From a virus, in UHGV virus genome UHGV-0324630: a stretch of 37,666 nucleotides of DNA; one strand, given 5' to 3'. Both the position numbers and the translations under genes were made by a program. Position 1 is the first letter of the stretch. The number at the start of each line of letters is the position of its first letter. Below, in pieces: positions 1 through 37,666 of this stretch. The notes under the pieces were generated by a model. It did no database searches. It was not told where the DNA came from and saw only the letters and a list, made by a program, of their open reading frames with translations.

Positions 1-44
1 TCACGACACTGCTTATTGCTTTGATTTTATTCTTATCTTTCCCA

Positions 45-99
45 TGGTACCCGGAGCGGGACTTGAACCCGCACAGCGCGAACGCCGAGGGATTTTAAA
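45..99 (-). tRNA. Partial tRNA-Leu (UAA-type) 3' fragment, about 55 nt; probable prophage att core, not an intact tRNA gene
   Basis: Minus-strand reading gives ...TTTAAAATCCCTCGGCGTTCGCGCTGTGCGGGTTCAAGTCCCGCTCCGGGTACCA: long class-II variable arm, T-arm GGTTCAAGTCC, acceptor 3' strand and CCA. Matches my memory of E. coli leuZ from the anticodon loop to the CCA end. The 5' half (acceptor 5' strand, D-arm) is absent; sequence diverges at position 100. Confidence 0.7.
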
Positions 100-205: not shown

Positions 206-1207
206 TTACCCTCTATTGTCAAAAGGGTTCAATTCAACAGCAGCCTCTAAATGACCTGGAGCAAAATGCGCATAACGCATAGTCATTTTTATATCGCTAT
301 GCCCCAGTATTTTTTGCAACACAAGAATATTTCCGCCCCGCATCATAAAATGACTGGCAAACGTGTGACGTAGCACATGAGTTAATTGCCCATCAGGAAG
401 CTCGATCTTCGCTCTCTTAATTGCAGCGTCAAAAGCCTCATAACATGGTGAAAATAGCGCTCCTCGTTTTTTAGGAAGCATAGCTTGCAATTGAGGTGAA
501 ATCGGTACAGTGCGGTTCTTCTTTCCTTTAGTTTTAACAAATGTGATTCGACCGGGCAGTACTTGAGATTGCTTTAATCCTTCTGCTTCACTCCACCGAG
601 CACCAGTCGCAAGCCCAATACGGACAACAACCCCCAAATCTTTATTCCGTGACTCATCACACGCAATCAGAAGGCGTTCAATCTCATCTACATACAGAAA
701 CGCCAGTTCCTTTTCTTCCTCACGAAACTTGCGAATACCAGTCAGGGGGTTTTCACCAGACCACTCCCCAAGGCGCTTCAGTTCGGCAAAAACAGCATGT
801 AGATATGACTGCTCGCGATTAACGGTTGCTTCACTAAGTTTTTTCTTCCCCTTGGGATTCCATTCTCCTGATAGCCTTCTTTCCCGATAAGTAGCAAACA
901 TATTTTTGTCAAACTGAGAAGCAAATGGATCTCCCAGCCTGGAACAAATCGCCTCAAGTTTGACTTTGCGCTCTGCACCAGAGGACAAGGTTTTACCGTA
1001 CATCTCAAACCAACGAGCAATCAACTCAGAAAGACGAGGACCAGAACCATCTTGAAACTCGTCTCCAACTCTACTATTCATTAAACGGCGCTCATAAGAG
1101 AGCGCCTCACTTTTTGTCGCAAACTGTTTACGAATGCGTTTTCCCGATGCCCCGTAGGGATAACATTCGCAAAGCCATTTACCTGATGGAATCTTACGAA
1201 CCGACAT
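206..1207 (-). CDS. int: Tyrosine-type site-specific integrase (P2/P4 phage integrase family)
   Basis: 333-aa ORF; C-terminal catalytic region ...LRHTFASHFMMRGGNILVLQKILGHSDIKMTMRYAHF with the R..H..R..Y pattern typical of phage tyrosine recombinases; lies next to the tRNA-derived att core. Confidence 0.92.
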   Translation of the reverse strand: MSVRKIPSGKWLCECYPYGASGKRIRKQFATKSEALSYERRLMNSRVGDEFQDGSGPRLSELIARWFEMYGKTLSSGAERKVKLEAICSRLGDPFASQFDKNMFATYRERRLSGEWNPKGKKKLSEATVNREQSYLHAVFAELKRLGEWSGENPLTGIRKFREEEKELAFLYVDEIERLLIACDESRNKDLGVVVRIGLATGARWSEAEGLKQSQVLPGRITFVKTKGKKNRTVPISPQLQAMLPKKRGALFSPCYEAFDAAIKRAKIELPDGQLTHVLRHTFASHFMMRGGNILVLQKILGHSDIKMTMRYAHFAPGHLEAAVELNPFDNRG

Positions 1208-34281: not shown

Positions 34282-34680
34282 GCAAATTAGATGTATTGAC
34301 TCAAACCAGAACTGACACACTCACAGCACAGTGCCAGACCCAATCTGGCAGCCCGCTTTGTGCCTAGAGCAGGTGTTGCTTATGTAACAGTTAATCCACG
34401 GATAGTGGTCATGAATGCTGGTTGAAGTTGTATTGCCATGAGTGGTCAATTAGGGACTCACTTATTATCGCGTGCTCACCATTGATGGGTAAGATCATGC
34501 ATTTCGGCTACTGTACTTCGCGAATCCTCCACACACAGGCAACACCTGATTTAAGAACAGAGGGAGATGATGACGCAAGGAAGATTTATTATCGTGCATG
34601 TGGCAGATGATCTTTTAGCTGCCGGAGTGATAAATTACACCTATTTTCGATAAGTGTTTTTGTTATAGAACATTAATTTC

Positions 34681-35820
34681 GTGGGAAACAATAAAGTGAA
34701 ATTAGGAAGAAATGATAAGTGCTGGTGTAATTCAGGACTTAAGTATAAAAAGTGCCATCTTGGTCGAGACCGTGAAACTCCGGTATCCAAAGCCGAGGCA
34801 CTGAAATTTTCAAAGTCTCTCTCGCAGAGAAAGGCATGTTATGCGCCAGCATCCATGCACGAAGATTGTGATAAACGCATCGTTCAGGCGCATACGATAT
34901 CTAAGAGCAGTAGCCTTAAGGCGATCGCCGACTCCAGCAATCACGTCATGGGGGTGATAATGAACTTAGCAAGCCTGATGAGAAACAACGGAAAATGGCT
35001 TCCCGAGAAGATCGGTATCAATCAGGCATCCACTTTTACAGGATTTTGTGCAGTTCATGACAGAATCTTGTTTTCATGCCTAGAGAACGAAAAATTTACA
35101 GGCACGGACGAGCAGTGCTTTGCCTTAATGTTTCGTTCATTGTCTAAAGAAATTTACGCCAAAGAAGGGGGAGTGCTATCTTCCGATTTTGCTAAAAATG
35201 CCGATAAAGGAAAGCTACAAGTTGAACAGTATTATATTCAGAAATTAATCGACCAGCACCAAAGTGGCTTAAATGCAGCAATAATTGAATTAAATAATCT
35301 TAAAACTAGCCTCGACCGCATCCTACTTAGCAGGCAATTTTCAGAAATTGAAAGTGTTATCTTCACTTTTGCAGAGCCTTTACCAATTGTAGTTTCGTCA
35401 ATTCTTTCACCGGAGAGGGATTTCGATGGGACCAAAATTCAGGATTTGAGCGATCTTACAGTGTCGGCGGAACAAGTATGTTTCAATGCTTTTTCCTGCG
35501 GAGGTAAGGGATATGTAGTGTTCAGTTGGCTGAGAACTTCAACAATTATCAGACGTTTTATACGGACACTAATTAAGATCCCGGCTAACAGGATGTTCAA
35601 TACCCTTCTGTATTTTTTCTTCACAAAGGCCGAAAATACATATTCATCCCCTGAGTGGTGGGACAGGCTCAGTGATAAACAGCGAGAGAATATCGGCAAC
35701 ATGATTATGTCAGGGGTTGAATTTTTTGGCAGACCTACATCACAGGTTGATCATTCCGTTGATTATAACGCCGCTGCACTTGAAGAGATAACATGCAGCA
35801 ACAACGAAATTTGCAGCTGA
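34681..35820 (+). CDS. Uncharacterised protein with N-terminal SEC-C-like zinc-binding motif (C-W-C-x8-C-H); AT-rich cargo gene inserted between gpD and ogr
   Basis: 379-aa ORF (GTG start, start uncertain; alternative GTG at 34696); N-terminal KCWCNSGLKYKKCH; rest unrecognised; strongly AT-rich with about 400 bp and about 290 bp non-coding flanks. Confidence 0.65.
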   Translation: MGNNKVKLGRNDKCWCNSGLKYKKCHLGRDRETPVSKAEALKFSKSLSQRKACYAPASMHEDCDKRIVQAHTISKSSSLKAIADSSNHVMGVIMNLASLMRNNGKWLPEKIGINQASTFTGFCAVHDRILFSCLENEKFTGTDEQCFALMFRSLSKEIYAKEGGVLSSDFAKNADKGKLQVEQYYIQKLIDQHQSGLNAAIIELNNLKTSLDRILLSRQFSEIESVIFTFAEPLPIVVSSILSPERDFDGTKIQDLSDLTVSAEQVCFNAFSCGGKGYVVFSWLRTSTIIRRFIRTLIKIPANRMFNTLLYFFFTKAENTYSSPEWWDRLSDKQRENIGNMIMSGVEFFGRPTSQVDHSVDYNAAALEEITCSNNEICS

Positions 35821-36109
35821 ATGTTTACATGCTGTTAGAAAAAGCGGGCTGAACAATCATTTCGGGATTGTAACAGATAAGATGGCACTGCCCGCTTGCT
35901 TCCCGATATGTACCTCAGCCAATAAACTTATGTAAGCAACCGATTTCCATTTATGCGGAGGTTATCAAAGTTGTTGGAGTTGCGAACTTCCGCTCTTCGC
36001 ACAAAGCGTACCGCTAGGTTTGATTGTATTCTGGCTGCGCAAACTGTCAGTTGGAGTCTGAGCTATTACAACTTAGAATAGCGGCAGCACCACGTTAAGG
36101 GAGGTCGCT

Positions 36110-36370
36110 ATGTTCCGTTGTCCGCTTTGTGGCGCATCTGCCCGAATCCGCACCAGTCGTCCGGAAAACGATTCAAACACTGTGCGGCAAAAGTATTACC
36201 AGTGTAACAACCTGGAATGCGGCGTATGCTTCTCAACACTGGAAGCTTTCCATAAATTCACATCAAAACACGCCTCCGGCGTTCACTCTTCGGAAGGTAT
36301 CCCGTGGCATGAGCTGCCAGCTTCACACAGGGGAAACAATCAGATGAGTTTGCCTTTACCTCAGAATTAA
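36110..36370 (+). CDS. ogr: Ogr/Delta-family zinc-finger late-gene transcription activator
   Basis: MFRCPLCGASARIRTSR...QKYYQCNNLECGVCFSTLE matches the P2 Ogr pattern (MFHCPLCQHAAHARTSR...RYHQCQNVNCSATF, from memory): C-x2-C ... C-x4-C zinc finger. Confidence 0.85.
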   Translation: MFRCPLCGASARIRTSRPENDSNTVRQKYYQCNNLECGVCFSTLEAFHKFTSKHASGVHSSEGIPWHELPASHRGNNQMSLPLPQN

Positions 36371-36561
36371 CAGGCAGAATTGCCGGAGTAACAAAAAAAC
36401 GATAGATTACCCGCGGGTGCCTTTCGGCTGATGGTCGGAGGGAATACCCGAAGGCCGGATGTGGAAAGGCCCCGGAAAACATTTCTGTTTAACCGAGGCC
36501 CTAACATATCTACCTTAAGCAAGTGATAGGTTAGCGCCTCTCCAACAAAGGAGCAAGCGCT

Positions 36562-36702
36562 ATGTCGCAAAAATCGCTTACGGCCATCACGTTCTGCGTG
36601 ACGGTAATCCTCATCATCTGGATGCTACACGGTTCGCTGTGTGAAATACGGATGAGCTTCTGGGGAGCGGAGTTTGCGGCGTTCTTACAGTGTAAGCAGT
36701 AA
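36562..36702 (+). CDS. Hok/Gef-family type I toxin (small membrane toxin)
   Basis: 46-aa ORF with AAAGGAG RBS: MSQKSLTAITFCVTVILIIWMLHGSLCEIRMSFWGAEFAAFLQCKQ; N-terminal TM helix then the SLCEIR motif characteristic of Hok/SrnB/PndA; not in the ORF track (below 60 aa). Confidence 0.8.
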   Translation: MSQKSLTAITFCVTVILIIWMLHGSLCEIRMSFWGAEFAAFLQCKQ

Positions 36703-36790
36703 GGAAACCGCGACGGGGGAGCAATCCCCCGTCAATCGGTTGCTAAGGTTGGCTGAAGTGGCACCCTATCTCACAGACATGAACAACAAA

Positions 36791-36822
36791 CCCGCAGCGT
36801 AAGAACTGCGGGTTTTCTTTTT
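36791..36822 (+). terminator. Intrinsic terminator (CCCGCAG-loop-CTGCGGG then TTTTCTTTTT) ending the hok-like transcript
   Basis: 7-bp GC-rich stem followed by a U-rich tract, read directly. Confidence 0.6.
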
Positions 36823-36890
36823 GGAACTATCACTAGCTAGTGTACCGTTAACGGCACATAATGCTCGCACAACAAACCTGTTAAAAGAGA

Positions 36891-37172
36891 TTACTCAGCA
36901 TTCTCCTGCTTCCATTGCCGGATCATTTCATCGGTAACATCACCCTCATAACATACCACGTCATACCCTCCATTACGGCTATATGCACTGCGTCCACCAC
37001 ATCTACTACCATTCCTTGCATGATTAAAAGGACACGCACAATTGCCTGGATAAGATTCAATGGATTCTTTAATTATTTCTTTTTTGATCTGAGCATCAGA
37101 CTTTCCTGTTGCTGCATATCCACTAAAAGATACTAAACAAAGGCAGATTGCCATTAATAAACCACATCGCAT
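36891..37172 (-). CDS. Small secreted cysteine-rich protein (signal peptide), unknown function; AT-rich
   Basis: Start taken at internal ATG (MRCGLLMAICLCLVSFSGYAA signal-like N-terminus); mature part has 5 Cys; true start uncertain (track ORF extends to 37286). Confidence 0.45.
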   Translation of the reverse strand: MRCGLLMAICLCLVSFSGYAATGKSDAQIKKEIIKESIESYPGNCACPFNHARNGSRCGGRSAYSRNGGYDVVCYEGDVTDEMIRQWKQENAE

Positions 37173-37453
37173 ACCGATACACTCTATTACTAACCAATCA
37201 TAGCCCACATCATAAAATCGAGATGAGGAGCACAATACCTTTAACAAGAAGGTGTCATAACGATAATATGTCGTGCAATTCATCAAAAAAAAGATCTATA
37301 TCAAAGAGATAGAACTCTTATCAGTGCTTCAGACATCGGCATTCGAGGCAGCAGAAAAACAGTAAATCTGACGAATTTGCCTTTTCCCAAGATGTTGTCA
37401 GATTAAAAAGATAGATTAGCGCAGGTACCTGTTGGTGGATTGCAGGAGGAAAA

Positions 37454-37558
37454 ATGAAGTCGAGTGGAAAAATCCCAGAAAAATTTTTGTTTAACAGAGG
37501 TCCTGGTTCACTATGCGAAATACGGAGGAGCTGCAGAAGAATTCTGCTTCATCCTTAG
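37454..37558 (+). pseudogene. Degenerate second hok-like copy: retains the GSLCEIR-encoding segment but lacks the hydrophobic N-terminal helix
   Basis: 34-codon ORF MKSSGKIPEKFLFNRGPGSLCEIRRSCRRILLHP; nucleotide similarity to the first hok copy (ggttcactatgcgaaatacgg vs ggttcgctgtgtgaaatacgg) with three synonymous third-position differences. Confidence 0.3.
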
Positions 37559-37644
37559 AGTTTAAACAGCACGTGCACTACCATTGTTTCTGCATATCGC
37601 CACACCATCGCCACTCTACCGCCATTGCACAAAATACAAATACG

Positions 37645-37666
37645 AAAAAACCACCCGAAGGTGGTT
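37645..37666. terminator. Hairpin AACCACC-cgaa-GGTGGTT preceded by A6 at the window edge; terminator-like (U-tract on the minus strand; plus-strand tail cut off by the window)
   Basis: Read directly; window ends inside the 3' arm. Confidence 0.35.

Follow-up and report, generated by a model that had tools for sequence, protein, structure and literature searches.

A second hok/sok module survives as a probable non-functional relic in the right arm of a P88-like prophage at leuZ

We analyzed a stretch of 37,666 nucleotides (UHGV virus genome UHGV-0324630, hereafter the window), which corresponds to an E. coli chromosomal segment with a P2-like prophage of the P88 / Xuanwuvirus type. Near its right end, the segment at ~37326-37570 is very probably, at about 0.9 in our estimate, a non-functional relic of a second "ogr 3' end plus hok/sok" module of the P88-like right arm at leuZ. 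The relic is significantly similar to a genuine hok locus, with which it remains collinear and which likewise follows ogr; since this homology is all that it shares with such a locus and every functional attribute of hok/sok that could be tested has been lost, we propose to file it as a hok/sok-derived pseudogene. The initial annotation had drawn attention to a short ORF in this region and had offered for it a decayed hok paralogue, a regulatory RNA derived from a hok locus, or flanking host sequence; the data below bear out the first of these and speak against the other two. The features to which we refer are the following:

1..99, minus strand: attL part of a 121-bp repeat, with the remainder of 3'ETS-leuZ at 1-44 and, at 45-99, 55 nt from the 3' end of leuZ
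36415..36822, plus strand: intact hok1, the reference copy (copy 1), with leader, 46-aa Hok/Gef CDS (36562-36702), 3' fold-back and terminator (36788-36815)
36891..37172, minus strand: ORF94, a 93-aa Cys-rich secreted-looking protein (YPGNCACPFNHARNGSRCGGRSAYSRNGGYDVVCY) that separates the two hok copies; the longest ORF reaches 37286
37326..37390, plus strand: remains of the final ~55 nt of ogr, interrupted by an insertion of ~20 nt, where the duplicated module begins on its left side
37395..37436, plus strand: what remains of the promoter of hok and of the 5' end of its mRNA (36396-36435 aligned with 37405-37436)
37454..37558, plus strand: 34-aa ORF (MKSSGKIPEKFLFNRGPGSLCEIRRSCRRILLHP), a Mok-like leader, KFLFNRGP, fused in-frame to the hok codons GSLCEIR
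37464..37504, plus strand: relic of the leader segment, a homologue of the hok mRNA stretch that faces the 3' terminator hairpin of Sok
37504..37505, plus strand: deletion junction, at which 128 nt of copy 1 (36503-36630) are absent
37505..37569, plus strand: relic of the C-terminal half of hok, with codons 24-30 (GSLCEIR) intact and then a frameshift
37594..37625, plus strand: three direct repeats, ATCGCCAC, ATCGCCAC and ACCGCCAT, with 11-nt spacing (starts at 37596, 37607 and 37618)
37645..37666, minus strand: attR part of the 121-bp repeat, that is, the repeat start with the terminator at the 3' end of 3'ETS-leuZ / glyW-cysT-leuZ

Pairwise alignment of the two copies, which had been recommended at the outset, revealed a similarity that is significant and wider than first claimed, beginning at ~37326 and relating the segment to the last ~55 nt of ogr and the hok locus (36320-36700). 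A global MAFFT alignment misaligned everything beyond the deletion, and local alignment was used instead. The gapped local alignment of the relic with hok1 scored 123.6, while shuffled sequences scored 54.7 +/- 6.7 and 300 real segments of the window 58.5 +/- 6.5, with a maximum of 77; the combined score is ~10 sd over these controls, and the aligned blocks are collinear across ~240 nt. Within the window, blastn recovered two blocks: 37464-37504 against 36461-36502 at 81% (34/41), which flanks the deletion junction, and 37505-37532 against 36631-36658 at 86% (24/28), which covers hok codons 24-33. In a sister allele, the leader block alone matched copy 1 with E = 9e-9. Overall, the relic is ~77% identical to hok1 over ~140 alignable nt, and its leader reads GTGGRAARATCCCAGAAAAA. 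Past the frameshift, GA.EF..FL can still be recognized in another frame, which stops near the old hok stop. At the left edge, comparison with the intact ogr CDS (36110-36370) gave two further blocks, 36320-36333 with 37326-37339 (11/14) and 36338-36360 with 37365-37387 (19/23). The matches of the relic in the phage database are Xuanwuvirus hok loci, at 72.5% over ~100 nt and at 89% over 28 nt in the hok CDS, the remaining ones being weak and at chance level (E about 1 to 3), and a relaxed phage search with the relic returned only Xuanwuvirus hok leaders at ~73% together with noise.

The deletion removed the elements on which the function of a hok/sok locus depends. Alignment of copy 1 with hokB and hokC of K-12, for which sokB and sokC are annotated, placed both of these RNAs from 36520 (5') to 36459 (3') and the K-12 mok starts at ~36510. 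The 128-nt deletion therefore took the Sok 5' recognition tail and the sok promoter region, which in copy 1 occupies 36521-36560 on the minus strand and in which TTGCTC-17-TAACCT can be read; the relic retains of Sok only the equivalent of 36461-36502, and a Sok gene with its own promoter, 5' recognition tail and terminator hairpin is not found in it. Also deleted were the mok/hok coupling region, the hok SD, the ATG and codons 1-23, which encode the membrane helix. The absence of a hydrophobic helix in every frame, noticed in the initial annotation, was confirmed, the best 17-aa Kyte-Doolittle mean in the relic being <= 1.23 vs 2.58 for the Hok1 helix. Upstream, copy 1 has a hok promoter with TTGCCG (36380-85) and TAGATT (36403-08) separated by 17 nt; in the relic the -10 is kept, TAGATT at 37412-37417, and only 11 nt separate it from the nearest -35-like hexamer, TTGTCA (37395-37400), so that a workable -35/-10 spacing has been lost. 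A degenerate tac-like box, GCAGGTACC, follows the -10 at the relic 5' end. A scan of both strands found no promoter-like site inside the relic.

The structures of the RNA have decayed as well. The Rfam search of the relic gave no match at E <= 1, and a structured leader of the RF01794 type, with tac/ucb boxes and sokT hairpin, was not recognized in it. The Sok-equivalent segment folds at -5.2 kcal/mol (z +1.5) in the relic, where 194 of 200 shuffles fold as well, vs -30 kcal/mol (z -4.4) in copy 1, and the z of the leader fold is 0.0 in the relic vs -3.2 in copy 1. In copy 1, GGCACCC (~36760) is complementary to its own 5' GGGUGCC, as in a fold-back (fbi) element; downstream of 37570, the relic shows only doubtful short matches and no plus-strand terminator. 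Residual read-through or weak transcription of the relic may occur.

The proximal copy presents a different picture. The product of hok1 was recognized by Pfam HOK_GEF with 30.1 bits (cut-off 22), and its leader by the Rfam sok/hok-leader model RF01794 with 44.8 bits (E = 2.9e-8), below the gathering score of 59. Among alleles, the hok1 CDS is 98-99% conserved vs 90% for the leader, the pattern expected of a live toxin gene. The upstream leader ORF of hok1 (MVGGNTRRPDVERPRKTFLFNRGPNISTLSK, 36431-36526) ends 36 nt short of the ATG of hok; in the allele of locus L042 (1331-1543), the same leader ORF continues 70 aa into hok, like classical mok. A K-12-type mok start near 36510 of hok1 is absent. 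As for ORF94, which RefSeq lists as "hypothetical", it is 95-97% conserved among alleles, belongs to no Pfam family and had no tblastn match in phage records. Homologues of 59-71% identity were found in other contexts, at loci L042, L043 and L044, the last from Phytobacter, and the search of genome contigs for ORF94 homologues gave one Phytobacter locus, without hok. At L042, an IS3-family transposase (182-871) cuts ORF94.

The relic is old and widely distributed. We collected 31 copies from E. coli chromosomes and IMG/VR contigs, representing 23 distinct alleles, and found the identical deletion junction in all 23; the deletion is thus older than their divergence. About 640 of 5426 complete E. 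coli genomes (~12%) carry the relic, including the O157:H7 genomes sampled, and RefSeq annotates no feature under the matches. In the five chromosomes whose arm was inspected, the relic always lies beside ogr-hok1-ORF94 and leuZ, and it also adjoins the ogr-hok arm in the IMG/VR loci examined. Its sequence drifts: in p10A, which diverges most among the alleles examined, no segment of the arm has changed more than the relic, at 83% identity vs 95-97% for ORF94 and the flanking spacers, and the GSLCEIR reading is gone. Gene conversion between the relic and hok1 was considered as a source of allele divergence and rejected, as the divergent allele resembles hok1 less, not more. Among alleles, the -10/5' box region is well conserved, and the first 13 codons of the 34-aa ORF, along with its ATG in most alleles, are fairly conserved; this could reflect either recent common ancestry or residual constraint, for example protein binding in the attP arm.

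Insertion sequences have landed in the relic in two strains. In UTAK-4, IS3 splits it (L072 2728-3941, IS3-family), and in EC13 it is truncated by IS1 (L073 1748-2445), which there has replaced the ogr-hok1-ORF94 arm and left the relic as a truncated piece. These two partial E. coli matches had been candidates for intact copies until they proved to be the IS3 and IS1 insertions. An intact orthologue of copy 2 was not found: the 819 bp at 36823-37641 had no match among 50,697 phage records, an E. coli-wide search for distant relatives retrieved nothing but this deleted relic, a 20-mer taken from its sequence had no match in species-representative genomes, and a degenerate 20-mer retrieved from IMG/VR only the same relic loci.

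The position of the relic within the prophage was defined by comparison with P88 and with strain E5. Phage P88 is 97.8% identical to window 36100-36822, and the match stops at 36822. P88 homology also skips window 34292-36069, P88 being without the insert that encodes a 379-aa "YecA family protein" (RefSeq product name), cargo between gpD and ogr in the window (~34681-35820; L001 3832-4971). Strain E5 is 100% identical across the final 6.8 kb of the window, and extension to the right in this strain, as had been suggested in the initial annotation, led to leuZ, cysT, glyW and pgsA, which lie on the minus strand and begin <=45 nt beyond the window end. In E5, attL and attR form a perfect 121-bp direct repeat around the prophage (placed at L001 6796-6916 and L004 4006-4126), and the att repeat is the prophage end. 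Within this repeat are the complete sponge small RNA 3'ETS-leuZ, terminator included, and 55 nt from the 3' end of leuZ. The sequence found just past the window end occurs a second time at window 1-99, and the window length is exactly one att-repeat period. The true right boundary of this prophage family is the leuZ 3'ETS. The relic ends 75 nt inside attR and, lying inside the 121-bp att repeats, is part of the prophage and not of the host flank; in records that keep the arm, it adjoins the ogr-hok arm.

Because the att repeat contains 3'ETS-leuZ, lysogens have two copies of it. One is attached to leuZ and would be supplied by the phage if the crossover falls in the tRNA part; the other is stranded beside int and yecA, without the tRNA promoter. 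In K-12 the whole element is absent and yecA directly abuts the leuZ 3'ETS. The prophage that bears the YecA-family cargo adjoins the host yecA gene. leuZ is a recognized prophage site in STEC genomes (PMC8767318), and the literature on the hok of this prophage, on CP-933T and on leuZ with P2-like phages supplied general context only.

The hairpin at which the ORF had been said to end is real, but it lies 90 nt past the ORF stop, at 37649-37666, and has its T-run on the minus strand. There it terminates the 3'ETS-leuZ / glyW-cysT-leuZ transcript, and it is unrelated to the hok-like ORF; it also falls within the first 22 nt of the att repeat. Window 37642-37666 and K-12 1991746-1991770 are identical in 24 of 25 bases, the sole mismatch being window 37644 (G; A in K-12), 5 nt outside the stem and the first annotated base of the sRNA. 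K-12 identity, the leuZ strand and a location directly 3' of leuZ all identify the hairpin as the 3'ETS-leuZ terminator. Between the relic and this terminator, and outside the relic, lie the direct repeats of 37594..37625. A further ATCGCCAC copy is found at 195-202, on the other side of the att repeat; the window has seven exact ATCGCCAC copies vs 1.6 expected, and three of the seven flank the att repeat (195-202, 37596 and 37607). The ATCGCCAC/ACCGCCAT repeats are probably integrase arm-type sites of attP. The conservation of the 37594..37625 stretch compared with the relic is 94.7% vs 83.3% in p10A and 90.7% vs 93.8% in WP7.

We then considered whether the relic might be something more than a pseudogene. 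The 34-aa ORF is an accidental chimera and not a gene: 128 is not a multiple of three, and the deletion has therefore joined the leader ORF (the KTFLFNRGP frame in copy 1) to the hok frame. The initial annotation was right in that the ORF shares GSLCEIR with the first hok copy at both the nucleotide and the amino-acid level (GGT TCG CTG TGT GAA ATA CGG in copy 1; GGT TCA CTA TGC GAA ATA CGG in copy 2) and that all three differences are synonymous third-position changes; the codon that follows changes non-synonymously, from ATG to AGG. That the ORF is a real small protein, a truncated Hok-derived peptide, is scarcely credible, in spite of an ATG that is preceded by GGAGGAAAAA, a good ribosome site, and opens 34 codons. 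The start is ATA in the O157 allele, ten of the 23 alleles stop at 13 codons and three yield a 36-aa product in another frame, the ORF has no usable promoter and no hydrophobic segment, and Pfam gave no match at E <= 1, Hok/Gef toxin (PF01848) included, while the synonymous pattern is better explained by selection before the deletion. An orphan antitoxin or regulatory RNA, by which the relic would yield a Sok-like antisense or a sense decoy modulating hok1 or an incoming hok, could be read from the homology of 37464-37504 (34/41) to the hok1 segment that faces the 3' hairpin of Sok and from a minus-strand T-run after this block. We consider it highly improbable, because the Sok 5' tail and promoter region fall within the deletion and the hairpin has been lost, with no promoter-like site and no Rfam match; moreover, indels and substitutions among alleles fall in exactly the Sok-equivalent block, IS insertions are tolerated and the alleles drift freely.

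The relic might be retained as DNA, in the form of a functional attP-arm or ORF94-upstream control element, a spacer or protein-binding site, given that ~25 nt separate its end from the three ATCGCCAC-type repeats with their 11-nt spacing and 75 nt from the att repeat, that on the minus strand it is situated upstream of ORF94 and that it persists in all alleles despite its age. This is nevertheless very unlikely: the conserved repeats are outside the relic, which is the least conserved arm segment in p10A, the conserved stretch by ORF94 is 37173-37362 and not the relic, and IS3 and IS1 have inserted in the relic, though those prophages may be immobile. We see a similarly slim chance that the relic has been kept because its ogr-tail/hok-leader repeats act as cargo-swapping recombination handles around ORF94, or because it was co-opted as attP-arm spacer or protein-binding DNA; if either were true, it would account for the survival of an old inactivated locus in every allele. 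Finally, the single blastn blocks are short (42 and 28 nt; E = 0.008 and 0.03), which might be taken for chance similarity or for host flanking DNA unrelated to the phage. This explanation can be dismissed, since the collinear blocks stand far above both sets of controls, P88 and other relatives, aligned with the relic, yield the same two blocks and the identical breakpoint, and the relic lies within the att repeats and is absent from K-12. The non-functional relic of a second module thus remains the reading that we favor.

How this second module arrived and decayed can be proposed as follows. The relic starts within the 3' end of ogr and has hok after ogr, as in the intact arm, and would therefore be what is left of a second "...ogr-hok-attP" right arm. 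Illegitimate recombination between two related phage right arms, or partial duplication of the arm, may have brought the modules together, and the ORF94 cargo would have ended up between the two hok copies. The proximal copy, hok1, presumably stayed working, and the distal copy would have been disarmed by a single deletion in which the antitoxin promoter, the toxin start and the membrane helix were lost together. Loss of sok alone would release Hok, so that such a joint deletion is among the few viable routes to losing hok/sok. Since then, the distal copy may have drifted as a passenger between the cargo ORF and the attP arm. The ~77% identity over ~140 nt and the three GSLCEIR changes, all synonymous, suggest, from a very small sample of seven codons only, that both hok genes were still functional, in different phages, as they diverged. 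We infer this order of events, be it by a xenologous join or by in-situ duplication. Simple tandem integration without later deletion finds no support, no residual att core being present between hok1 and the relic.

Most hok/sok loci of K-12 have been inactivated by IS elements or rearrangements. Degenerate hok/sok loci in E. coli are exemplified by hokA-E of K-12 (Pedersen & Gerdes 1999, as cited in PMC2887945), and O157:H7 Sakai has 14 Hok/Gef genes, degenerate and tandem type I loci being well documented in E. coli (PMC2887945). As in the degenerate K-12 loci, function was lost in the relic by rearrangement while leader and CDS fragments remain recognizable; unlike them, the relic owes its loss to one internal 128-nt deletion, resides in a prophage arm and not in the core chromosome, and is unannotated in RefSeq. 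The nearest characterized working relative is hokW-sokW of the Stx prophage Sp5 / 933W, a working type I toxin-antitoxin pair (Takada et al. 2021, PMC8621323). The hok1 locus is 84% identical to the Stx phages and 97.8% to P88, whose hok is "MokW-like", and the sole meaningful matches of the relic, ~77% over the ~140 alignable nt, are to this subgroup; unlike hokW-sokW, however, the relic is without toxin start, membrane helix, sok promoter and folded leader. The neighboring 3'ETS-leuZ of K-12 (b4759), which window 37645-37666 plus 1-44 match exactly, is on the opposite strand, unrelated to hok, and duplicated here in the att repeat.

A related P2-like arm, L043 (IMGVR_UViG_2757320577_000005, 1-1500), has three hok modules beside an ORF94 homologue: a full hok (662-802, minus strand), a leader-only copy (289-464) and a third hok in the ORF at 1150-1452. 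L043 differs from our arm in both order and breakpoints: its shortened copy has the full hok on one side and ORF94 on the other, and it breaks off at the hok start codon instead of carrying an internal deletion. Hok modules therefore seem to accumulate and decay repeatedly in this arm. The relic raises no new biological question, and its value is mainly for annotation and natural history, as an unannotated hok/sok pseudogene in ~12% of complete E. coli genomes. It is also a clean example of the safe loss of a type I toxin-antitoxin locus, with the antitoxin promoter and the toxin start gone in one deletion. Set beside the systems described above, the relic is of a kind already known, and what is new is its identification at this locus.
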